From: Candidatus Nanosynbacter lyticus
GTDB taxonomy: Bacteria; Patescibacteriota; Saccharimonadia; Saccharimonadales; Saccharimonadaceae
DNA length: 32,000 bases
Direction: 5' to 3'
Assembly (NCBI RefSeq): GCF_030253515.1
Contig: NZ_CP124549.1
Span: 270,001-302,000 of the forward strand
Part shown: positions 2,382 to 29,967 of the stretch, piece by piece
How the letters are laid out: every line of letters starts with the position of its first letter
Position numbering within the stretch: the first letter of the stretch is position 1
Notes under the pieces: model-generated
Told to the model about the DNA's origin: nothing
The model's database searches: none
What the model saw: only the letters and a program-made list of their open reading frames with translations
Program-made: the position numbers and the translations under genes

Positions 2382-4979
2382 TTACTTCTTTGAGCGGCTG
2401 CTTTTTCTCGGGGATTTGGATGGTTTGGTTGAGGTGCGGCCGCGGCGGGCGGGCTTCACGGGTGCGACCTTCAGAAGCTCCAAGGCTTGCTCGTGAGTAA
2501 TGGTTTTTGGGTCGGTGTCTTTAGGGACTTTGGCGTTTTTCGTGCCATCAGTGATGTACGGGCCAAAGCGGCCGTTGAGGACTTTAACACCATCGCCAAA
2601 GTCAGCGATGTTTTTCTCGGCTTCGGCCTGGAGTTTGGCGGCGTAGAGCTCGCGGGCTTTCTCTAGGGTGATGGTGTGCGGGTCTTCGGGCTTGATGGAG
2701 ACGAACAGCTTGCCGACTTGGATGTACGGGCCAAAGCGGCCGATGTTGGCTTTGATGTCTTGTCCGTCTTCGGTTTGACCGACGACCCGCGGCAACTTGA
2801 ACATTTCCAGCGCTTGCTCCAGGGTGACGGTTTCAATTTTCGCCCCCTTCGGCAGCGGCGCAAAGCGTGGTTTGTCCTCGTCGTCAGTGGCTCCCAGTTG
2901 CAACATTGGACCAAAGCGGCCAAAGCGCGCCAGGATTGGTTTGCCAGATTTTGGATCGATGCCGACTTCGCGGTTAGCGCCGACTTTACTGCGGTCGATG
3001 CCGCCTGACTGCTCAATCAGTTTGTGAAACGGCGTGTAAAATCCGTGCAGCATGGCGCTTTTGGCCAGCTCAGCGGCAGCGATTTTATCAAATTCGGTTT
3101 CGACATTGGCGGTAAAATCATAGTCAACGATCTGCGTGAAATGGTCGGTCAAAAAGTCGGCGATTAGTTCCCCGCTTGGCGTTGGGATGAGCTTGCCGCG
3201 GGTGGAACCGGTTTTTTCTTGGATGACGTCGCGGCTGACTTCCTCGCCGTTGTAGCTGAGGACGATGACGTCGCGCGGCTGGCCTTCGCTGTCGCCCTTT
3301 TCGACGTAGCCGCGGGTCTGTACGGTGTCGATGATAGTGGCGTAGGTGCTTGGCCGGCCAATACCGAGATCTTCGAGTTTTTTAACCAGTGAACCTTCGG
3401 TGTAACGGGCCGGCGGCCGGGCGAAGGTTTGGCGGGCGATGATGTTGTGAGTTTCAAGCGTGTCGCCAGAGTGGAGCTTCGGCAAGATTTCGTCTTTGCC
3501 GCCGCCATAGACGCGTAGGAATCCGTCGAAGGTGATGACTTCGCCTTTGGCTTCGAAGTATAAGTCTGCGGTAGCCGCCTCTCGGACATCGTCAGAAAGG
3601 TCGGTATTACCAGCGCCACGCTCCTGCGCTGGAGTACTCTTTTCGCTTGTATCTCCACTGGAGATACTAAGCGAGCGTTCGGCTGAAACGTCCGCTCCTC
3701 GCGAACGTTTCACAGCCTCCAGCGCAGGAGGTGTCGCTGGCGCTGGCTCATCTGGCGCGAGTGGCGTCTCAGAAAAAATCTGGGCAACTTCATGTGGGTC
3801 CCGGATTGTTTTATGAGATGCCCGAGCGCCGCCGATAGCGATTACCATCGTGGTTTTCTCTAACTTCGCTGCCGACATTTGCGATGCCAGAGTGCGGCGG
3901 CGGATGAGGTCGTAGAGTTTTTGGTCGTACTCGTTGGAGGTGACGGTTTCGCGGGTGATGTCGGTCGGGCGGATGGCTTCGTGAGCTTCCTGGGCGGAGG
4001 CGGATTTGGTTTTGAATTTACGCACAGTCGAATAATCTGGGCCGTACAGCCGCTTGATGAAATCAGTCGCGCTGGCGATGGCCTGCCCGCTCAAATTGAC
4101 TGAGTCGGTGCGCATGTAGGTGATTTTACCGTCTTGGTAGAGCCGCTGGGCCGAGGCCATGGTGGCCTTGGAGCTGAAGCCAAGCTTGGCGTTGGCCTCT
4201 TGCTGCAAGGTTGAGGTCGTAAACGGCGCGGCTGGGTTGCGGGTGCCAGGCGTTTTTGAGATATCGCTGACGGTGAATGTGGCTGGCTTGAGGCTGCTCA
4301 AAAATTCGTGGGCGGCTGCTTCAGAATCAAATTTCTGGTTAAGTTCGGCTTTGAATTCTTGATTGTTATGGATAAATACGGCGGTCACCTTGAACTGCGA
4401 GCTACCCTCAAATTTCATAATTTCTCGTTCACGCTCGACCAATAGCCGCACCGCTGGACTCTGAACACGTCCGGCTGACTTGCCGCCCGGTACTTTTTGC
4501 CAGACTACCGGGCTGAGCTCAAAGCCAACCAATCGGTCGAGAATCTGCCGTGCCTGCTGGGCTTGCACCAGATTCATATCAACAGTGCGCGGGTTTTTAA
4601 TGGCATTGGTGATGGCGTCCTTGGTGATCTCGTGAAAAACGATGCGCTTGGTCGTCTCAACCGGCAAATCCAGCACTTTACAGAGATGCCAAGCAATCGC
4701 CTCCCCTTCGCGGTCTTCATCGGTGGCCAGCCAGACGTTGTCTTTGCCGACGGCCTTGACATTTTTCTTTAGCTCGGTGATGACTTTCTTTTTCTCGGGA
4801 TCAACTTCGTAGACAGCAAAAAAATCATTCGCCACATCAATCGGCGGCGTGCCGTCCTTGGTTTTTTTGACAATCGAGCGGATGTGCCCCACGCTTGATA
4901 AGACATGAAAATCCTTGCCCAAATATTTCTCAATGGTTTTGGCTTTGGCTGGTGACTCGACGATGACGAGATTTTTCAT
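2382..4979 (-). CDS. topA: DNA topoisomerase I (type IA) with a GRFGPY-repeat C-terminal domain, a Lys/Arg-rich tail and an in-frame low-complexity insertion of about 85 aa
   Basis: 865 aa. TOPRIM N-terminus MKNLVIVESPAKAKTIEKYLG and DEDREGE; active-site region ITYMRTDS. C-terminal repeats ARFGRFGPMLQLG, ANIGRFGPYIQVG and LNGRFGPYITDG replace Cys4 zinc fingers. The tail is KPARRGRTSTKPSKSPRKSSRSKK. The insertion ARASHKTIRDPHEVAQIFSETPLAPDEPAP...NTDLSDDVREA lies just before the conserved FEAKGEVITFDGFLRVY. Confidence 0.95.
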   Translation of the reverse strand: MKNLVIVESPAKAKTIEKYLGKDFHVLSSVGHIRSIVKKTKDGTPPIDVANDFFAVYEVDPEKKKVITELKKNVKAVGKDNVWLATDEDREGEAIAWHLCKVLDLPVETTKRIVFHEITKDAITNAIKNPRTVDMNLVQAQQARQILDRLVGFELSPVVWQKVPGGKSAGRVQSPAVRLLVEREREIMKFEGSSQFKVTAVFIHNNQEFKAELNQKFDSEAAAHEFLSSLKPATFTVSDISKTPGTRNPAAPFTTSTLQQEANAKLGFSSKATMASAQRLYQDGKITYMRTDSVNLSGQAIASATDFIKRLYGPDYSTVRKFKTKSASAQEAHEAIRPTDITRETVTSNEYDQKLYDLIRRRTLASQMSAAKLEKTTMVIAIGGARASHKTIRDPHEVAQIFSETPLAPDEPAPATPPALEAVKRSRGADVSAERSLSISSGDTSEKSTPAQERGAGNTDLSDDVREAATADLYFEAKGEVITFDGFLRVYGGGKDEILPKLHSGDTLETHNIIARQTFARPPARYTEGSLVKKLEDLGIGRPSTYATIIDTVQTRGYVEKGDSEGQPRDVIVLSYNGEEVSRDVIQEKTGSTRGKLIPTPSGELIADFLTDHFTQIVDYDFTANVETEFDKIAAAELAKSAMLHGFYTPFHKLIEQSGGIDRSKVGANREVGIDPKSGKPILARFGRFGPMLQLGATDDEDKPRFAPLPKGAKIETVTLEQALEMFKLPRVVGQTEDGQDIKANIGRFGPYIQVGKLFVSIKPEDPHTITLEKARELYAAKLQAEAEKNIADFGDGVKVLNGRFGPYITDGTKNAKVPKDTDPKTITHEQALELLKVAPVKPARRGRTSTKPSKSPRKSSRSKK
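3588..3650 (+). repeat. possible degenerate copy D of the palindromic element, inside topA, in the same orientation as A and B
   Basis: It starts atcgTCAGAAAgg, compared with atcaTCAGAAAat in copy A. The encoded peptide QERGAGNTDLSDDVR parallels QKKSGIVSGPELSSDDTR (B) and QKKSGQLYVGPGLFSDDIR (A). Nucleotide similarity is weak in the centre and the right arm. Confidence 0.4.
3757..3821 (-). repeat. palindromic repeat element copy C, inside topA, in reverse orientation relative to copies A and B
   Basis: gcgagtggcgtcTCAGAAAAAATCTGGGCAACTTCATGTGGGTCCCGGATTGTTTTATGAgatgc. By hand alignment, the 50-nt core 3767..3816 matches the reverse complement of copy A (17092..17141) at 46/50 positions. In topA it is read in frame as HKTIRDPHEVAQIFSE. 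Confidence 0.85.
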
Positions 4980-5084
4980 AACTCTATATTATATCAAATC
5001 ACCTCGCAACCACAACCGCCGAGGGTGTTTCTCGGTGGCTCTGGTTGCGAGGACAGAGAGATGGGTCTGTCCTCGCGGGGAGCG

Positions 5085-7680: not shown

Positions 7681-8664
7681 ATGACGCAGACAATTGAGCA
7701 CGATACCTTAGTCAAATTAAGTCAAGAGCGCCCGTTGGTGTTTCGAGCGCAGGCAGCTACTGTCTTGGCACGCGTACCGCGACGATTTCGACGAGACGCG
7801 CGGGTGCTGAATCATAGCAAGCGCACAATGCACGACATGTTGACGGCGTGGCGGGACGAATGTTTGCCGAGGTTAGAGACGATCACCTCGGCGCATAATG
7901 CGACAATGTTGCAACAAGCCTTGCGGGAGGATTTGCTAGCCGAGACGTCGTCGCAGCAACAGCTGATTGCCATGATGATACCGGTGCGGCTCGAGGAGGA
8001 GCGACTGGCCTTTGCGGGGTCGCAGTTTACGTCAAGGCGAGAAAAAAAGCCGTATCGACGAACGCTGGCGTTTGCCCAGCAGCCAATTGATGTCTGTCGG
8101 CAGCAGGTTGAAGATTTTATGAGGTATGAACTGTACCGGGCGGTGCTCGGTGAGGTTGGTGTGACTGTGGTGGATAAGCAGGCCCGGGGGCTGGTGCGAT
8201 GCTGGCAGCGGCTGCGGGCTGGTCGTCAGGTTAAGAAACTGCGGCGCGAGGTAACCAGGCGCTTAGCGGCAATTGAGCGAGAAATGGTGGCGATTGAGCA
8301 GGAGCGCGGCGGCTTGGCGGCCCGGCTGTTCGGGCTGAATATTGATTATGTGACGGTACTAGCAGCGCGACAGGAGTATGAAAAGGCGCTGGGTCGGCTG
8401 AGTAAAAAAGCGGCCGAGAGCCCAGCCAAGCGGCTGGCGCTATATGAGAAAAAGACCGAAGCGATTCGCGAGGAGTATCTCGATACGGTACCGGGCGTGG
8501 CGAATTTGTCAGAGGCGCAGCGGGCGGTCAAGGAAATTGATTCGGTGCTGCTGGCGATTTTTGACCTAGACGCGACAGCACGCAACGAACTGATGAGTGC
8601 GTTCAAGCGCTACCGGATGCTGACGCGTGAGCGGGATGTGCTACGGGCGAAGCTTGAGGTGTAG
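7681..8664 (+). CDS. hypothetical Arg/Glu/Ala-rich protein, probably coiled-coil (327 aa)
   Basis: Long ORF with its own promoter. Composition and heptad-like stretches such as RRLAAIEREMVAIEQERGGLAARL suggest a coiled coil. No catalytic motif was recognised. Confidence 0.6.
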   Translation: MTQTIEHDTLVKLSQERPLVFRAQAATVLARVPRRFRRDARVLNHSKRTMHDMLTAWRDECLPRLETITSAHNATMLQQALREDLLAETSSQQQLIAMMIPVRLEEERLAFAGSQFTSRREKKPYRRTLAFAQQPIDVCRQQVEDFMRYELYRAVLGEVGVTVVDKQARGLVRCWQRLRAGRQVKKLRREVTRRLAAIEREMVAIEQERGGLAARLFGLNIDYVTVLAARQEYEKALGRLSKKAAESPAKRLALYEKKTEAIREEYLDTVPGVANLSEAQRAVKEIDSVLLAIFDLDATARNELMSAFKRYRMLTRERDVLRAKLEV

Positions 8665-8729: not shown

Positions 8730-9179
8730 TTAGGCTTGGCTCGTCGTTTCGGTTGAGCCAGGCTGCGTATCGCCAGCTGCCATGCAGGTCTGGCACACTC
8801 CTTCAAGTTCAAAGTGGTGGCGCTCGACACGGAAGTGATGGCGCTGGCCGATCAAGGCAATGAGTCGCTCTAGCTCTGGTGTCTCCAGCGGTTCGGCATT
8901 ATGACAGCGGGTGCAGTAGAGGTGGTGGTGATGTGTGATGAATGGCTCGGCGAGCTCATAACGGACTTTCCAACCGATGTGGATGGTGTTAATGACGTGG
9001 AGCTCGTGAAAGGTTTCGAGAATGCGATAGATGCTGGTGCGGTTAGTGTTCGGGCAGCGCTTGGCGATTTCGGCGATGGTCAGTGGCACGTCGATGGATT
9101 CGAGTGCCGTAAAGACTTCGCAGCGTGATTTGGTCAGACGAAGGTCGGCCCGGCGAAAGATGTCGTGTAAGGTATCCAT
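8730..9179 (-). CDS. Fur-family metal-responsive transcriptional regulator (Zur/Fur/Nur type unresolved)
   Basis: N-terminal winged helix LRLTKSRCEVFTALESIDVPLTIAEIAKRCPNTNRTSIYRILETF. A His cluster and two Cys pairs are present: HHHHLYCTRCHN...GVCQTCMAAG. The genomic context is metal-uptake genes. Confidence 0.85.
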   Translation of the reverse strand: MDTLHDIFRRADLRLTKSRCEVFTALESIDVPLTIAEIAKRCPNTNRTSIYRILETFHELHVINTIHIGWKVRYELAEPFITHHHHLYCTRCHNAEPLETPELERLIALIGQRHHFRVERHHFELEGVCQTCMAAGDTQPGSTETTSQA

Positions 9180-9246
9180 GTCGCAATTGTATCACTTATT
9201 GCGACAAAATTGCAATAAGCTACACAATGCGCCATACTGATGAGCT
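9179..9246. promoter_or_regulatory. divergent fur/NAS promoter region carrying motif copy S1 and an extra half-site (probable operator)
   Basis: Plus strand: TTGCAA(9209..9214)-17-CATACT(9233..9238), then 8 nt to ATG 9247. Minus strand: TTGCAA-18-TACAAT (reverse complement of 9186..9191), then 6 nt to ATG 9179. The palindrome CTTATTGC-N9-GCAATAAG (9195..9219) and the half-site TGTCGCAAT (9179..9187) overlap both promoters. Confidence 0.6.
9199..9218 (+). repeat. 20-bp motif copy S1 (TTGCGACAAAATTGCAATAA; 16/20 to the window consensus)
   Basis: Read directly from the sequence. It lies in the fur/NAS intergenic region. Confidence 0.8.
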
Positions 9247-10030: not shown

Positions 10031-10050
10031 TTGAGACATTGTCGCAATAA
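10031..10050 (+). repeat. 20-bp motif copy S2 (TTGAGACATTGTCGCAATAA; 19/20)
   Basis: It lies between the convergent stops of the NAS-like gene (10014) and the TIGR03943-like gene (10061). Confidence 0.8.
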
Positions 10051-13083: not shown

Positions 13084-13103
13084 TTGCGACATTGTTGCAA
13101 TAA
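13084..13103 (+). repeat. 20-bp motif copy S3 (TTGCGACATTGTTGCAATAA; 19/20)
   Basis: It lies between the convergent stops of the TerC-like gene (13038) and pth (13157). Confidence 0.8.
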
Positions 13104-14730: not shown

Positions 14731-14747
14731 ATCATTCCAATGAAAAT

Positions 14748-14855
14748 AGCCCACCGAACGAGCTCAAGCTGCATGCGGGTTTATTCAACCCGAGAGATAG
14801 AAAAATCCTACCTCAATCAGATTGAGCGCATACGGCGAGCTATTTTCGGTGGGCT
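14748..14855. other. long imperfect hairpin or structured intergenic element
   Basis: AGCCCACCGAA (14748..14758) pairs with TTCGGTGGGCT (14845..14855), extended by AGCTC (14761..14765) with GAGCT (14837..14841). Two inner hairpins are present: CGGGTTtattcAACCCG and CTCAATcagATTGAG. It lies between the convergent ends of the COG0523 gene and the 95-aa gene. Confidence 0.45.
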
Positions 14856-14856
14856 G

Positions 14857-15144
14857 TTAGCCCTCTTGTGCTTCTGGAAGCATCTTGATGAGCTTCTCCG
14901 TTGTGGCCTCTGCACAGTTGGATACTGCTACGTCCATCTGTGCAAAAATATCTTCTGCGATTTCTCCTCCTGCCGCGATCGCGACAGTAAGTAGCTGTGT
15001 GAAGCGCTGCAGTTGGCGCCCCATCTCCTGTTTAACGAGCTCTTGGTCCTCTGGGTTAAGGGCCAAGAGCTTTTCTTGAACCGTCAACTGAGGCTCAAAT
15101 CTAACCCTCCCAATTTCGGGCGATGCGATCTCGATAGTCAACAT
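14857..15144 (-). CDS. hypothetical small protein (95 aa)
   Basis: ORF MLTIEIASPEIGRVRFEPQL... preceded by AAAGGAAAG about 6 nt upstream and by a promoter plus leader hairpin. An alternative 84-aa plus-strand ORF overlaps it. Confidence 0.5.
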   Translation of the reverse strand: MLTIEIASPEIGRVRFEPQLTVQEKLLALNPEDQELVKQEMGRQLQRFTQLLTVAIAAGGEIAEDIFAQMDVAVSNCAEATTEKLIKMLPEAQEG

Positions 15145-16652: not shown

Positions 16653-18197
16653 TCATTTCTTGTCAAGAACAACCAAGTGCTCAATATGCGGTGTGCGCGG
16701 GAAAAAGTTGTAGCCATGATGATGGACGATGCGGTAGTGTTGTTGGAGCAAGGCGACATCGCGGGCTTGGGTGACGGGATTGCAGCTGAGATAGAGGATG
16801 CGCGGCGGCAGCTGTTGCAACAATGTCGCAATAACGTCGGGATGCAAGCCGGCGCGCGGCGGGTCAACGATGACGATTTCCTTGCCTGTAATGTAGTCGA
16901 GAGCTTGTTCGCTGGGAGCGAGGACAGCGCGGGCGTCAGTGCGGTCAAGTTCGGTGATGTTACGCTGCATCTCGGCGACGGCGTGTTCGTTGATTTCTAC
17001 CAGTGTGACGTTGCCATCAGCAATGGTCAGGCCGATGGTGCCAACGCCAGCATAGAGGTCGATGGTTGATAATTTGACAGCTCGAATATCATCAGAAAAT
17101 AATCCGGGACCCACGTAAAGTTGCCCAGATTTTTTCTGAGATATTGCTCGCTGTTGACTATCGGTGTTATCATGTGCCGCCAACTGATCCAGCTGGCGCT
17201 CTTGGCGCGCCTTATTGTACGGTACCCATTCCCGCATATCGCATAGCGCCTGCTCGTAAACCGGGATGTTGACTTGGAAAAAGCCTTCGCAGGCGTAGCA
17301 AAATGGCACACCAAGAATGGTGTCGGTCAAGGTGGTGTTGCCGAAATGCGCTAGTTGCTCGGTGATGCGGCTGGCTGGTGAGCGCGGGTCGGAGTAGATG
17401 ACTTCCCCGCCCTGAGCCGGTAATTTGGCGGCTTCATCAGCGGTAATTATTTCGGGCAAGCGATCCTTGATATACAGCTGCCAGACGCAACTTCCTGACT
17501 GATCGCAGCGGACGAGCAAGGTCTTGAGCTGGCGAGCCGCGACGCGTTTATGGCGCAGTAAATCACGGATAGCCCGCGCCAGGTTATTGATTTCTGGGTG
17601 TGCCAAACTTGTGCCCTCGACGACCACCTTGCCCTTGCTGCCGCGACGGAAAAATGCCAAGTCAAGCGTATCAATCGATGATTCTTCACGGTCGCTATCC
17701 GCGTCTATCCCCCGGGTATCATCAGAGGATAATTCGGGACCTGAGACAATCCCAGATTTTTTCTGAGGTACCGCTCGGGATACTACCGATTCGCTGTACC
17801 AGCTAAATTCAACTTTGTTGCGATAACCATATGCGACATTGTCGCAATAAATATCAATCGCTGCTGGTAGTGTGACATTATGCAGTGTAAACGCATCATT
17901 AATCAACTGTGCCTTATACGTCTGCTCAACTTCGAGTGGAATAATCTGCCACGGGCTGGTCGACAGATAACTATCTGGGTCACGTGGCTGGATGCGGTCG
18001 GGGCTTGGCGAGATTACTTCCTCGGCGACCGCCTCGACGAAGTGCGATTTCTTTTTGGTAATGCGAACGGTGACGGTCTCGCCCGGCAGCCCGCCCCATA
18101 CGAAACATTTGCGGCCGTCAGCCAGCGTTCCTAGTGCTTGCCCGCCACCAACAATTTTCTCTAGTGTCAGCGTCTCGAAACTCTGCCGTCCCATCAA
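16653..18197 (-). CDS. TrmA/RlmD(RumA)-family RNA (uracil-5-)-methyltransferase with a TRAM domain, carrying two in-frame insertions
   Basis: TRAM-like N-terminus (GETVTVRITKKKSHFVEA), SAM motif I DLYAGVGTIG, DPPRAGL, and catalytic YLSCNP. Insertions sit around VPQKKSGIVSGPELSSDDTRG and SQKKSGQLYVGPGLFSDDIRA. The likely true start is ATG 18194, with TATAAT (reverse complement of 18202..18207) 7 nt upstream. Confidence 0.85.
   Translation of the reverse strand: MMGRQSFETLTLEKIVGGGQALGTLADGRKCFVWGGLPGETVTVRITKKKSHFVEAVAEEVISPSPDRIQPRDPDSYLSTSPWQIIPLEVEQTYKAQLINDAFTLHNVTLPAAIDIYCDNVAYGYRNKVEFSWYSESVVSRAVPQKKSGIVSGPELSSDDTRGIDADSDREESSIDTLDLAFFRRGSKGKVVVEGTSLAHPEINNLARAIRDLLRHKRVAARQLKTLLVRCDQSGSCVWQLYIKDRLPEIITADEAAKLPAQGGEVIYSDPRSPASRITEQLAHFGNTTLTDTILGVPFCYACEGFFQVNIPVYEQALCDMREWVPYNKARQERQLDQLAAHDNTDSQQRAISQKKSGQLYVGPGLFSDDIRAVKLSTIDLYAGVGTIGLTIADGNVTLVEINEHAVAEMQRNITELDRTDARAVLAPSEQALDYITGKEIVIVDPPRAGLHPDVIATLLQQLPPRILYLSCNPVTQARDVALLQQHYRIVHHHGYNFFPRTPHIEHLVVLDKK
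16814..16833 (+). repeat. 20-bp motif copy S5 (TTGCAACAATGTCGCAATAA; 18/20), inside the methyltransferase CDS
   Basis: It encodes DVIATLLQQ on the minus strand. Confidence 0.8.
17087..17151 (+). repeat. palindromic repeat element copy A, inside the methyltransferase CDS
   Basis: tatcaTCAGAAAATAATCCGGGACCcacgtaaagttgCCCAGATTTTTTCTGAgatattgctcgc. The arms TCAGAAAATAATCCGGG and CCCAGATTTTTTCTGA are complementary apart from one bulge and one mismatch. It is translated as SQKKSGQLYVGPGLFSDD. Confidence 0.85.
17717..17778 (+). repeat. palindromic repeat element copy B, inside the methyltransferase CDS
   Basis: tatcaTCAGAGGATAATTCGGGACCtgagacaatCCCAGATTTTTTCTGAggtaccgctcgg. Against copy A the left arm matches at 17/20 and the right arm at 17/17, and the centre differs. 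It is translated as PQKKSGIVSGPELSSDD. Confidence 0.85.
17831..17850 (+). repeat. 20-bp motif copy S4 (ATGCGACATTGTCGCAATAA; 19/20; contains the perfect 15-bp palindrome TGCGACATTGTCGCA), inside the methyltransferase CDS
   Basis: It encodes DIYCDNVAYG on the minus strand. Confidence 0.8.
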
Positions 18198-20244: not shown

Positions 20245-22485
20245 CTACTTTTTCGCCTCTTGTCTCTTATTAAAGAAGTAGATAAACTGCTTTATTATGG
20301 CCTCCTTAAGCTCGGGGGATTTTTCATTTCCCACTTTTGCGATAGTGCGAATACTATTTGTCGTCGGACGCTCAAACAGTACAAGATCTACCTCCTGTAT
20401 ATTGCCTAGAGTGCCATATCGCGGATCGGATATGATAATTTGGTGCAAAGTATCAATATTGATAATGGTATCTATACTAAGCATTATATCTGGTGTCAAA
20501 TCTCTATAGGTATAATCGCTTTTGCCCATAGTATGCCAAGTTCCTACGAACTGTAGTATAAAGCCTATTACATCATCTGCTGACTGTATCTTTTTCTCTA
20601 AATACTGACTAGTCTCCTCTCTGGTGGAAAGCTCAGCCCATCTTGTGTATAGTCGGATAGATGAGCCATTTTGACTGAGTAGCGGCAATTTATCATTCTT
20701 AGCAAAGCACCTGATACACTGCAAAGCGGTAGTCTTATATTGTTGAATTTGATCTTTTTTCAGTTCAATAGAGTGATTACCCTTATTTGTACTGTAATGG
20801 ATTACGTGGTCTATAGTGCGTGAGAATGTATCTATTCTGTCTTGGTCGAAGAGATGATTAATGAGAGAGATATATCCTGTGGTCTTTTCATCTTTACTTT
20901 CACTGGCAAGTATGTCATCGATAGTAAATAACACTCTCTCTAATGCCGTAAGTGTTAGTGAAGATGATCTGGCAGTAGGCATTCCTTCGATTAAATCCAG
21001 TAGACATGTACAGAATACTATTTTGTTTTTTATGACACTGTGTCTTTTAGAGATAATCCATAGTGCTGTGGCAATATTATTCTCGTTGATTATGTGTAAG
21101 TTTTTACGAATAGACGCCTCATCAACAGAATTCGTTAGTAAATTCATAACTGCAACATCAGAGATATCCTCTATTTCGTCAAGCGATGCAAAGAACTTCT
21201 CGAAATAATAGTCTGAGGCAATCCGCTGGTGGTACCGTAGGTCATTCTCATTTATATTGCCATAGCCCTTAAGTGTATATGCAACAAAAGGAAATAATTC
21301 TTGTACTATCTCTAACCAACGATCGTCGCCTCCGAAAGTATCCTGAAGGTCCTGCTTGCGAGAGGTGTCGTCATTAATGCCATATTTAGAGCTGATTTTT
21401 TCTATTAACATATCCCCGTTGTTTTTGATTCTTTCATATAGGCCATCGTCAAATAGGCGAATAATTTCAAGTACTATGACATCAACCATATTCATCTCTC
21501 CGTGGCACAGGGGAAGTCTAAACAATAATGAATTATTCAGTCGGTTAATATCTCTCGGTGATTGTATATATGCACCCAGGTCGTGATACCCGAGTATAAG
21601 TCGGAATCGCTCTATTTCATTTTCCTCTAAGACAATGGAATGTTGCTTACAGATTGATTCAATAGTAGCCGCCAGCATCCTATTTAGCGACGACCTGCTT
21701 GCTTTGGGTAGCTCAAGAGGTATTTGTATAATTTTTTCGAGGTATTCTTGGCCGCTGGCACCTTGTGGAAGGAATTGTTCAATTGCCGATGCAACATACC
21801 TATTGTCAAATGGAAGTATATATACTATACCGGCATAGTTTGCTATTTGGGCGATTATATGCATCAGATCTGTGATGCTTTGACTTTCAAGTCTGTCTAT
21901 GTCATCAATGACAACGATCACTTTTTTACCTGATTCCTTAATTTCTTCCTGTGTTTTAATCTTAATCTTATTTATGAAGTAGCTTGATTGTAGTATCCTG
22001 CTGACATAATCCATGCTCGCTGTAATCCTACCGAGGTATATGGACGTCTCCTTGCGACCCCCAGAGTTAAGGTCGATCTCTATAGTGGAATCAATTGGAA
22101 GTTTTGCTCTACTTAATTTGCCGAAGAATCTGCTAGTTTTTTCTCGAAAGCCGCCGAAGGCTTTGTCGGTAACTTTTTCGTATATGTTTTTAAGAATTTC
22201 ATGAAAAATTGCGTCGCCGTTGCCATTAAGCTCCCAGGCATTAAGTTTGACAAGGACTGGTTTATTCTTTCTCGTGCTGTCATTAATTCTTTGTTCAATT
22301 AAATTAATAGTAGATGTCTTACCGGAGCCCCAGCTTGCATACAGGCCGATGATAAAGCTCCTCTCTTTGTCGAGTGAGTTCAGGATACTGACTATTTTTT
22401 CTGCAAAAGAAAGCCTTCCAAGTGAGTCATATTTCTTTGAATTGATCGGACTATCAGAGCTATAGGTATTCATTCTACAGATCAT
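20245..22485 (-). CDS. KAP-family P-loop NTPase (soluble form, no obvious transmembrane insertion)
   Basis: Walker A in the KAP-typical context IIGLYASWGSGKTSTINLI and Walker B KKVIVVIDDIDRLES. A long helical C-terminal region follows. The gene is AT-rich. An alternative start is ATG 22473 (MNTYSSD). Confidence 0.8.
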   Translation of the reverse strand: MICRMNTYSSDSPINSKKYDSLGRLSFAEKIVSILNSLDKERSFIIGLYASWGSGKTSTINLIEQRINDSTRKNKPVLVKLNAWELNGNGDAIFHEILKNIYEKVTDKAFGGFREKTSRFFGKLSRAKLPIDSTIEIDLNSGGRKETSIYLGRITASMDYVSRILQSSYFINKIKIKTQEEIKESGKKVIVVIDDIDRLESQSITDLMHIIAQIANYAGIVYILPFDNRYVASAIEQFLPQGASGQEYLEKIIQIPLELPKASRSSLNRMLAATIESICKQHSIVLEENEIERFRLILGYHDLGAYIQSPRDINRLNNSLLFRLPLCHGEMNMVDVIVLEIIRLFDDGLYERIKNNGDMLIEKISSKYGINDDTSRKQDLQDTFGGDDRWLEIVQELFPFVAYTLKGYGNINENDLRYHQRIASDYYFEKFFASLDEIEDISDVAVMNLLTNSVDEASIRKNLHIINENNIATALWIISKRHSVIKNKIVFCTCLLDLIEGMPTARSSSLTLTALERVLFTIDDILASESKDEKTTGYISLINHLFDQDRIDTFSRTIDHVIHYSTNKGNHSIELKKDQIQQYKTTALQCIRCFAKNDKLPLLSQNGSSIRLYTRWAELSTREETSQYLEKKIQSADDVIGFILQFVGTWHTMGKSDYTYRDLTPDIMLSIDTIINIDTLHQIIISDPRYGTLGNIQEVDLVLFERPTTNSIRTIAKVGNEKSPELKEAIIKQFIYFFNKRQEAKK

Positions 22486-28836: not shown

Positions 28837-29967
28837 CTAGTCCATAACGATTAAACCGCTAGTTGACATTTCGGTCAGTAGTATTGGCAGCAGTTCCTTA
28901 TTCCTAGATAGCGTCAGAGCATACTTCTTCTTGCTGTAGTACAACAGTCCTCTATCTGTTAGTTCTCTTAGTTTTCTTGACCGCCGCCTATCGTTAGCTG
29001 AAGAATTACCGCCGAAAATCATAGAAACATCTCGAGCCTGAATCACGTCTTTTTTAACAGCAACTTCTAAAATTTGCCTTTCTTCGTCAGATAAAGCTTT
29101 TATTTCGGCTGCTCGTTTCAGGGTTGGTAGAATTACTTTCTCAACAACTTCTTTTTTATCGAGGAGCTGCATGGTTCGCTTGATTTCTTCCTTTATTCCT
29201 TCCGCAACATAAAGACACCACTTTTCAAGCAGCGAATCATCTCCTGTTTCTATTCCTCTATCAGCTACACTTAGCATTTCATAATATCGTCTGCGATCAA
29301 CGCAAAAAATTGAAGATGGATTCAATACGGACGCATCGTGAATAAACCCTTTTTGAACCAGCATAGCGTAGGTAAAGAGCCTAGCTACACGGCCGTTTCC
29401 GTTCTCAAAAGGATGAATCAGCGTAAATCTATGATGAGCAAGAGCTATATTGATGATATCAAACTGAGGCGCTTCGCGTATGTTTACTGTGTTCAGCAAG
29501 TCCTCAAGCTCTTCCTTAACCTTCAGATGACTTGTTGTTTTTGCTGAGCTGCCATTAATGATATTATCTCTGGTCTTAAATTGTCCAGGATGTTCCGCGC
29601 CGTCTTTATCAAGAGGTAGATCCTTCACTACAATTTTATGCAGCTCGCGGATCATTGCCAATGTGATGTCATCGCCAGCTTTTATCGTTTCGTCTATAAA
29701 ATTCAGACCTCTACGGATATTCAGAAACTGCTTTACTTCATCAACTTCTTCTTCCTCGCTATTTTCTATCGAGCTAATCGCAGCAGAAACAAGGGTAGTG
29801 TTATTCCCCTCAATCCGTGCGGAGGCGACACTTTCCATAAGATATATAATATTTTTAATATCATAAAATATCCAAGGCGGTGTCGAGCCTTGTATATAAC
29901 GATTGCGCATATTCTCAATCTCAAAAATAGTATTAGTGATAGGAGAATCAAAACGAGGATTTATCAT
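28837..29967 (-). CDS. Fic-family protein (AMPylase-type motif) with an N-terminal inhibitory-helix motif and a C-terminal winged-helix-like region
   Basis: Fic motif HPFENGNGRVARL (HxFx[DE]GNGRxxR) and an N-terminal SARIEGN ([ST]xxxE[GN]). The gene is AT-rich. TATGAT (reverse complement of 29974..29979) lies 6 nt upstream of the ATG. Confidence 0.85.
   Translation of the reverse strand: MINPRFDSPITNTIFEIENMRNRYIQGSTPPWIFYDIKNIIYLMESVASARIEGNNTTLVSAAISSIENSEEEEVDEVKQFLNIRRGLNFIDETIKAGDDITLAMIRELHKIVVKDLPLDKDGAEHPGQFKTRDNIINGSSAKTTSHLKVKEELEDLLNTVNIREAPQFDIINIALAHHRFTLIHPFENGNGRVARLFTYAMLVQKGFIHDASVLNPSSIFCVDRRRYYEMLSVADRGIETGDDSLLEKWCLYVAEGIKEEIKRTMQLLDKKEVVEKVILPTLKRAAEIKALSDEERQILEVAVKKDVIQARDVSMIFGGNSSANDRRRSRKLRELTDRGLLYYSKKKYALTLSRNKELLPILLTEMSTSGLIVMD

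Follow-up and report, generated by a model that had tools for sequence, protein, structure and literature searches.

The DNA analysed here is a 32,000-nt stretch of the Candidatus Nanosynbacter lyticus genome (NZ_CP124549.1, positions 270,001 to 302,000; hereafter the window). Two housekeeping genes on its reverse strand, topA and a gene for an RNA m5U methyltransferase of the RlmD/RumA/TrmA type, carry in-frame copies of an imperfect palindrome of approximately 80 nt, and we refer to the family that contains these copies as H (Table 1). An initial annotation of the window had reported three copies of a palindromic element of about 50 bp, two in the methyltransferase gene (A and B) and one in topA (C), and had interpreted them as selfish DNA resembling the Rickettsia palindromic elements (RPEs). 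The three copies were recovered where they had been reported: the 17-mer CCCAGATTTTTTCTGAG, which is the right arm, occurs exactly at 17124 (+), 17751 (+), and 3768–3784 (−), i.e. three times against 0.07 expected from dinucleotide shuffles, and the two-arm pattern CCGGGACC-N12-CCCAGATTTTTTCTGA is exact in copies A and C, with zero occurrences expected. The matches between the copies were also reproduced, copy A sharing 46/50 positions (92%) with the reverse complement of copy C, and copy B agreeing with copy A at 17/20 positions of the left arm and 17/17 of the right arm. The size of the unit had been underestimated, since the similarity runs beyond the core to give approximately 80 nt.

Both host open reading frames (ORFs) are open. 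Translation returned the peptides that had been quoted, with ISQKKSGQLYVGPGLFSDDIRAV just before the motif DLYAGVGTIG as described, VPQKKSGIVSGPELSSDD, and SHKTIRDPHEVAQIFSE in TopA; the inserts are predicted to encode SQKKSG...GPGLFSDD, SHKTIRDP...AQIFSE, and PPALEAVKRSRGADVSAER. The methyltransferase ORF likely starts with the ATG at 18194, and copies A and B occupy two variable linkers of the protein. Proteins of oral taxon 488-like genomes share 93–98% identity with the methyltransferase and TopA of the window. In the window, the two host genes are intact and collinear with many orthologues at 90–98% identity, showing that copies A, B, and C are genuine.

Table 1. Features of the window, with positions counted from its first nucleotide
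Feature	Position	Strand	Description
topA (host gene)	2382–4979	−	Toprim, Topoisom_bac, and C-terminal repeats
RlmD/RumA/TrmA-type RNA m5U methyltransferase (host gene)	16653–18197	−	TRAM and tRNA_U5-meth_tr (Pfam)
H copy A	17076–17155	+	nhmmer 17076–17157; antisense to the methyltransferase ORF; loop allele V1, 12 nt; peptide QQRAISQKKSGQLYVGPGLFSDDIRAV, directly upstream of S-adenosylmethionine (SAM) motif I
H copy B	17706–17782	+	nhmmer 17706–17785; antisense to the methyltransferase ORF; 9-nt loop allele V2 TGAGACAAT; peptide VVSRAVPQKKSGIVSGPELSSDDTRGI, in the methyltransferase between its TRAM/N-terminal part and its central domain
H copy C	3753–3831	−	sense orientation in topA; loop allele V1 CACATGAAGTTG; peptide GARASHKTIRDPHEVAQIFSETPLAP
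M2	3610–3747	−	palindromic module of ~130–140 nt, Y-shaped three-way junction; next to H
H outer-end remnant	3576–3598	+	23 nt CGCCTCTCGGACATCGTCAGAAA, inverted relative to copy C; encodes LSDDVREA
Inverted repeat upstream of topA	5002–5052		22-nt repeat, 86% complementary, 7-nt spacer
TTGCGACAnTGTCGCAA sites	7898–7914, 9199–9215, 10031–10047, 13084–13100, 16815–16831, 17831–17847		last two inside the methyltransferase ORF
Fur-family regulator	8730–9179
Inverted repeat after the CobW gene	14737–14858		42-nt arms (74% complementary, 32 nt apart) and an outer 14-nt pair; no Rfam match
KAP-family P-loop NTPase and Fic/DOC protein	20245–22485 and 28837–29967

In H, two arms of approximately 35 nt form inverted repeats around a centre of 9–12 nt. 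Read in a fixed orientation, the unit consists of X (5–6 nt), TCG, Y (6 nt), TCA(G/T)AAAA(T/C)AATCCGGGACC, the loop, CCCAGATTTTTTCTGA, Y', (G/A)CTC, and X'; copy A follows this layout with TCAGAAAATAATCCGGGACC as the left arm of the core and GCTC between Y' and X'. The stem segments Y and X lie outside the core and are split by the conserved TCG/GCTC internal loop. The core is nearly invariant in both orientations, and X and Y vary by site yet stay complementary. Across 35 sequences representing nine site classes, standard pairs made up 93.7% of the cells, compared with 39–52% in slid controls; 12 of the 27 pairs of the stem had changed on both sides, and five of the six X pairs covaried. The earlier statement that each copy is an imperfect hairpin held for copies A and C, which had DNA folding z-scores of −4.4/−5.3 and −2.5/−4.7, respectively, but not for copy B of the window, where folding was insignificant (z −1.1/−0.2) because the left arm is mutated and partly degenerate, GAGG replacing AAAA.

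The loop of H exists as three alleles and chimeras of these, each allele being found in six or seven of the nine site/orientation classes: V1, CAC(G/A)T(A/G)AAGTTG; V2, CGAGACAAN (9 nt); and V3, CGCTAAAGCCAG. Loops of 9 and 12 nt preserve the reading frame. The reverse-orientation copies in one of the further hosts, ABC-F, have an 11-nt loop, and the ORF is nonetheless open. Neither H nor M2, the second module of the TopA insert, had a match in Rfam 15 at the gathering score or at E ≤ 1.

Loci were ascertained through an exact 23–27-nt pattern, with which 185,579 species genomes (one per prokaryotic species) and 241 million metagenome records were scanned, and a profile hidden Markov model was run over the fetched stretches of 8–14 kb around the matches (1.44 Mb in total). 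The genome scan gave 69 stretches, 68 of which came from Candidatus Saccharibacteria/Saccharimonadota, the organisms including oral taxon 488, TM7 HOT-348, and Candidatus Minimicrobia vallesae; the metagenome scan added 113 further stretches. By these scans, H is found only in the human-associated/oral Saccharibacteria (TM7) clade. The sole match from elsewhere (L061, Acidobacteriaceae) was an unrelated intergenic hairpin and was rejected as a chance match. Viral contigs, plasmids, and phages gave zero H matches, and no vector was identified among them.

Assignment with Pfam and BLAST showed that H resides in five loops of four housekeeping genes, i.e. the RlmD-like methyltransferase (two sites), TopA, a tRNA dihydrouridine synthase (Dus), and an ABC-F double ATPase, in which the insert lies just after the second Walker A motif. 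The initial annotation had proposed a pattern search for additional copies and had regarded their absence, combined with the same peptide segments at the same positions in distant orthologues, as fatal to its claim; the copies in Dus and ABC-F answer that point. Every Saccharibacteria copy lies within a long open frame and has a single peptide reading per orientation. The profile search gave 241 H hits, all in the four host genes, the acidobacterial chance match being the only other one. Intergenic copies numbered zero among these 241 hits and among all exact-pattern hits, whole genomes having been scanned by the exact pattern only. The number of copies per genome is about five and never exceeds five.

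Both orientations of H were seen in four of the five loops. In the metagenome set, the reverse and forward counts were 59 and 10 for the methyltransferase, 8 and 16 for ABC-F, 8 and 13 for TopA, and 12 and 13 for Dus. The forward orientation reads (A)SHK(T/I)IRDP...AQIFSE(T/M)PLA, and the reverse orientation reads SRAVSQKKSG...GPGLFSDD, which is unrelated to the forward peptide. The original observation of one DNA sequence yielding different peptides in its two orientations applies, accordingly, to four of the five loops. The peptides of the H inserts had zero Pfam family matches, and when the 92-residue TopA insert was compared with 1.84 billion representative proteins, only four matches were obtained, three of them chimeras. 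Solved homologues lack the segments as well, in agreement with the earlier view that the inserts are not a conserved protein module.

The orthologue alignment that had been suggested as a check revealed empty sites. Orthologues at 85–97% identity miss individual H copies: of the methyltransferase homologues with an identity of 85% or more, site B is missing from P0109 and P0117 (a clean 102-nt gap, P0109/L070 being an empty allele) and site A from P0119 and P0105, and in the TopA allele P0215/L187, M2 is present and H is absent. In another TopA allele (P0240/L188), H is present and M2 has been lost by a 219-nt in-frame deletion at a GAGA microhomology, and several TopA alleles have 12-nt deletions within H. 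Truncated or decayed H was found in L017, L020, L040, and L002, as well as in the window remnant at 3576–3598. Among the 120 closest TopA homologues (at least 90% identical), the insert takes 80 distinct forms of 34–97 residues.

The placement of the inserts in loops rests on sequence alignment to solved homologues. In the solved mycobacterial structure 6pcm, just 2 residues correspond to TopA residues 389–471 (window 3567–3815), and in the solved homologue 5xj1, 16 residues correspond to methyltransferase residues 316–376. An AlphaFold2 model of the methyltransferase, made from a 10-sequence alignment (A2), had a mean predicted local distance difference test score (pLDDT) of 39 and was unusable for surface-loop placement.

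Methyltransferase alleles of 548–565 aa (P0085–P0090 and similar ones, e.g. P0088) have extra material around site A. Upstream of site A, some alleles, that of L140 among them, contain a partial forward H (its left end), approximately 130 nt of in-frame intervening sequence, and then a full reverse H; nested or partial copies of this type suggest that the methyltransferase linker is an insertion hotspot. A simple in-situ inversion at site A was rejected, as L140 shows two adjacent insertion points with differential loss. Three comparisons of filled and empty sites yielded a single candidate for a target-site duplication, a possible diverged repeat of 9 bp at site B (TACAGCGAA/GATAGCGAC); site A and TopA showed nothing of the kind. 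In the TopA copy, the left outer arm X (GGCGC) overlaps the codons ATC GGC GGC (Ile-Gly-Gly), and these codons align with sequence kept in the H-less L187 and with IGG in the mycobacterial TopA. Host flanks may have served as part of the template for the outer arms, which are specific to each site.

The topA copy had been listed simply as a third copy. It is a real one, but the structured in-frame insert to which it belongs extends over 266 nt and comprises, besides H, the second module M2 and 23 nt left over from the end of an inverted H. Folding of window positions 3570–3835 was far beyond that of shuffles both as DNA (−75.8 kcal/mol, z −8.8) and as RNA (−135.7 kcal/mol, z −9.3), and the region folds as three units, namely H, M2, and a small hairpin holding the remnant. 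The outer stem of M2 includes CTCCTGCGCTGGAG/CTCCAGCGCAGGAG, its in-frame translation is PPALEAVKRSRGADVSAERSLSISSGDTSEKSTPAQERG, and its consensus structure has 40 pairs, 12 of which show compensatory double changes. The remnant alone had an nhmmer E of 0.76, and it is backed by orthologous intact copies, as the TopA of L009, L010, L028, L044, L052, and L054 has an intact H at its position.

M2 adjoins H in TopA, ABC-F, and Dus at 80–97% nucleotide identity; the ABC-F module of L055 is 97% identical to the M2 of the window over 119 nt, and the ABC-F sequence of L038 is 91% identical to the TopA H and M2 over 221 nt. This likeness, together with the presence of the same DNA in four unrelated genes, bears out the proposal of nucleotide-level spread. 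The relative orientations of H and M2 vary, and L009 and L010 carry the whole TopA unit inverted with respect to the window. Between orientations, the identity of M2 is approximately 82%, compared with 89–95% within one orientation. Three public chimeric proteins (P0121–P0123), representing ABC-F/TopA, GTPase N-terminus/Dus, and GTPase N-terminus/ABC-F, are joined exactly at H or M2, and L138 resembles them, suggesting that the repeat either causes mis-assemblies or marks real recombination. A ribosome-type (Der/Era-like) GTPase may also host M2. The reference proteins matched by blastx of M2 hosts themselves contain the modules, which made that host classification unusable.

We compared pairwise identities at the first, second, and third codon positions. 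The values for the host methyltransferase were 0.93, 0.96, and 0.76, whereas those for H were 0.97, 0.91, and 0.96 at site A and 0.90, 0.87, and 0.87 at site B; with the codons of the searched pattern excluded, the H values became 0.95, 0.89, and 0.945 at site A and 0.89, 0.84, and 0.81 at site B. H is thus without the three-base periodicity of protein-constrained sequence, and the lack of codon periodicity in its substitutions fits the earlier claim that the copies are not set by protein-level conservation. At the protein level, the identity of the insert columns was 0.83 and 0.91, versus 0.94 for the rest of the protein. Single-sided stem changes, read in the mRNA sense, comprised 36 G·U and 57 A·C events, which is the opposite of what selection for RNA pairing would give, and the idea of an mRNA hairpin was therefore dropped as the main explanation.

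Within host genes, alleles of opposite orientation can have flanks that are up to 94–99% identical, suggesting that rearrangement or allele exchange is not very old everywhere. At site A of the methyltransferase, forward and reverse copies have different Y and X arms, and the forward and reverse copies of Dus belong to different sub-families. The ABC-F lineage with reverse H has host flanks only about 70% identical to those of the other ABC-F lineage, and the core is intact.

The modules behave as DNA: they are found in either orientation, are present or absent in close relatives, are trimmed in frame, exchange loop alleles, and show no codon periodicity. In our judgement, H is probably, with a likelihood of roughly 70%, a clade-restricted, RPE-like family of in-frame insertions that colonised loops at the DNA level, and not a protein module. 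A non-autonomous hairpin element of the MITE (miniature inverted-repeat transposable element) or REP (repetitive extragenic palindromic) type would have colonised the loops before the present lineages diverged, and would survive only where an essential gene would be destroyed if the element were lost imprecisely or the frame were shifted. Copy-to-copy and arm-to-arm conversion, including template switching on the hairpin, would keep the arms complementary, unless selection does so. Selection for an open frame would preserve the asymmetries in arm length and permit only indels that are multiples of three, and in this way frame selection would explain why these asymmetries are conserved. The inserts would be translated as tolerated surface-loop peptides, and strains would exchange alleles by transformation, consistent with the presence of DprA among the proteins encoded in the window. 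Present-day transposition is not indicated. Of the interpretation as RPE-like selfish DNA, the RPE-like behaviour stood, while size, copy number, and intergenic presence did not agree; since no new insertion site was seen, 'selfish' in the sense of active spread, like mobility itself, can be inferred for the past only.

Several observations weigh against this interpretation. Among the window genes, which the enzyme check covered, no transposase, REP-associated tyrosine transposase (RAYT), invertase, or recombinase was identified; no lineage-specific new insertion site was present among approximately 240 copies, and there was no clear target-site duplication besides the candidate 9-bp repeat. 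The absence of intergenic copies from the hits, combined with hosts that are all nucleic-acid- or ribosome-associated enzymes, is odd for a purely selfish element and leaves room for a function. H at site A is more conserved than the synonymous sites of its host (third position 0.945 vs. 0.755), which is not so at site B, and for the excess at site A either conversion or selection must be invoked. Homogenisation of loop alleles within genomes was not evident (0.25 within vs. 0.21 between genomes, p = 0.2). Ascertainment through an exact pattern may miss diverged or intergenic relics elsewhere in the genomes, and the translation of the inserts is predicted from their open frames.

The compensatory changes that keep the hairpin across nine site classes, and those that keep M2, would also be expected if both modules were functional nucleic-acid elements under selection, acting as cruciform/dsDNA protein sites or as co-regulating mRNA structures, and placed in coding sequence because a tiny genome has little intergenic space. 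Such a role would account for the near-invariant core in both orientations, its intactness in the diverged reverse-H lineage of ABC-F, the conservation at site A beyond host synonymous sites, and the restriction to TopA, RlmD, Dus, and ABC-F (with the ribosome-type GTPase as a possible further host of M2) without intergenic copies. However, individual copies are dispensable in close relatives, others are decayed or truncated as listed above, copy B of the window no longer folds, and at site B the rate of change of H is close to that of synonymous sites. The preponderance of A·C over G·U events is contrary to RNA-pairing selection, the varying orientation speaks against a strand-specific RNA role, and even at E ≤ 1 there was no match in Rfam. 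We consider selected elements of this kind unlikely, but not so unlikely as to be neglected. Slightly more doubtful is the idea that H and M2 make up a selection-maintained, exclusively intragenic cassette system in the loops of enzymes acting on DNA, tRNA, and the ribosome (TopA, RlmD, Dus, ABC-F, and perhaps the ribosome GTPase). The cassettes may all be recognised by a DNA-structure-binding or processing protein, or they may be invertible or exchangeable recoding cassettes that diversify enzyme surfaces; if true, this would be a mode of gene-internal regulation or diversification undescribed for the candidate phyla radiation.

Programmed recoding might also arise if the arms of H, or two inverted H units flanking M2, served as invertase or recombination substrates, so that one gene would specify two loop variants as in intragenic invertons. 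Four loops do contain H in either orientation with the frame open in both, the H–M2 unit of TopA is inverted between lineages, a piece of inverted H persists in the window at M2's far end, opposite-orientation alleles can have 94–99% identical flanks, and recoding intragenic invertons are known in other bacteria (PMC10028968). The orientation classes nevertheless carry fixed differences (M2 being 82% identical between and 89–95% within them), the Y and X arms at methyltransferase site A differ by orientation, the methyltransferase case consists of two adjacent insertion points that occur together in L140, the Dus copies of the two orientations stem from different sub-families, and the window is without a recombinase; inversion is, on balance, distinctly improbable. 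It is very improbable that the inserts are ordinary lineage-specific protein linkers or domains, with a nucleotide likeness that is incidental or due to duplication of a coding module. The frames are always open and the peptides have a per-column identity of 0.83–0.91 within a host (vs. 0.94 for the rest), but the same DNA read on opposite strands gives unrelated peptides, codon-position periodicity is lacking, the protein searches gave no Pfam match and four matches in 1.84 billion representative proteins, and the segments are missing from close orthologues and solved homologues. The chimeric proteins joined at H or M2 (P0121–P0123, with L138 similar) could be taken to mean that the copies are artefacts of repeat-induced mis-joins in metagenome assemblies, which the initial annotation had named as a risk to its claim. 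Yet the same copies recur at the same positions in complete genomes (CP128407.1 and NZ_CP076459.1) and in approximately 180 independently assembled contigs, and the host genes of the window are intact and collinear with orthologues at 90–98% identity, leaving this explanation with a negligible probability.

Other features of the window were also recorded. The sequence TTGCGACAnTGTCGCAA is a 17-bp perfect palindrome with six sites in the window at no more than three mismatches, against 0.15 expected. Several of these sites flank the Fur-family regulator, a nicotianamine-synthase-like gene, a DUF1980/permease pair, and a CobW GTPase; judging from these neighbours, the palindrome is probably a Fur/Zur-type operator. 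An inverted repeat with two sets of arms forms a structured intergenic segment within the gap after the CobW gene, and a shorter one lies immediately upstream of the topA start codon, in a gap between divergent or adjacent genes. The KAP-family P-loop NTPase and the Fic/DOC protein represent gene types often tied to defence or toxin functions, and they are unrelated to H.

Saccharibacteria are a reduced, host-dependent, and naturally competent lineage of the candidate phyla radiation. Until now, Rickettsia has been the best-known case of palindromic DNA inserted in frame into core genes. The similar behaviour of an unrelated family in Saccharibacteria suggests that such insertions arise repeatedly where genomes have been reduced to an extreme degree. 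H offers a compact system for asking whether essential genes shelter elements from deletion, and whether the self-conversion of a palindrome mimics selection on structure. From a practical point of view, the repeat yields chimeric contigs and proteins in TM7 metagenome assemblies, and it makes TopA, RlmD, Dus, and ABC-F seem richer in 'lineage-specific insertions' than they are. As TM7 strains can be cultivated, proteomic and long-read tests are within reach. The literature searched links no palindromic, RPE, or MITE elements to Saccharibacteria, Nanosynbacter, or TM7x, in keeping with the remark in the initial annotation that no description of such behaviour was known for the lineage.

Among the known systems with which H can be compared, recoding intragenic invertons (Chanin et al., PMC10028968) likewise consist of a gene segment bounded by inverted repeats, with two frame-keeping orientations and a recoded stretch of protein, as seen in four of the loops. 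Invertons, however, flip within a clonal population by means of an invertase, whereas the orientations of H are fixed in different lineages with accumulated differences, and one H cassette is common to four unrelated genes. Palindromic amphipathic repeat coding elements (PARCELs) are similar in being translated coding DNA with dyad symmetry that apparently moves between genes and genomes. They differ in that a 25-residue motif is repeated in tandem, in accessory ORFs of distant taxa that have unknown functions and are often membrane-targeted, whereas H is a single-copy insert in the core enzymes of one clade.

As summarised in PMC3733652 and PMC2817692, REPs are extragenic, 20–40 nt long, and present in over 100 copies per genome, with GTAG or CGTC as their tag. 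H resembles them, and the bacterial interspersed mosaic elements (BIMEs) that they form, in its imperfect palindrome with conserved bulges, in the conserved tetranucleotide beside the stem (CTCG on both sides in H), and in the mosaics of units in alternating orientation, as in H–M2–inverted H; it differs in its length of approximately 80 nt, its intragenic location, and its approximately five copies per genome. Typical MITEs have target-site direct repeats, approximately 50 or more copies, a mostly intergenic or 3'-untranslated location, and often a recognisable parent insertion sequence (IS). The ORF-fusing MITEs (Coxiella QMITE1/2, PMC5896051; ERIC, BOX, and Correia-type elements, PMC3184786, PMC10969869) are like H small and non-autonomous, with terminal inverted repeats and a strong predicted hairpin, and they lie inside or overlap ORFs, contribute peptides, and are conserved between strains. 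Unlike these, H has no clear direct repeats and no parent IS (among the window genes searched), very few copies, and an exclusive location within essential genes.

The closest likeness in behaviour is to the RPEs, which are described, in the account of Ogata et al. (2000) as relayed by PMC10969869, PMC1779305, and PMC3184786, as elements of 100–150 bp in about ten families, with tens to hundreds of copies that are abundant in both intergenic and genic locations. H too is a short hairpin-forming palindrome of a reduced, host-dependent genome, as the z-scores of copies A and C and the pairing data indicate; it too is inserted in frame in unrelated housekeeping genes, where it would add a fold-compatible peptide, shows presence and absence among related genomes, and has no known transposase. 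On the other hand, H measures approximately 80 nt and not 100–150 bp, all of its hits are from a different phylum (Candidatus Saccharimonadota), it is limited to no more than five copies per genome in four genes with none intergenic, and four of the five loops hold it in both orientations, with M2 as a further module combined with it, so that it is set apart from the RPE families by description. By this comparison, H is analogous to the RPEs rather than a member of one of their families.

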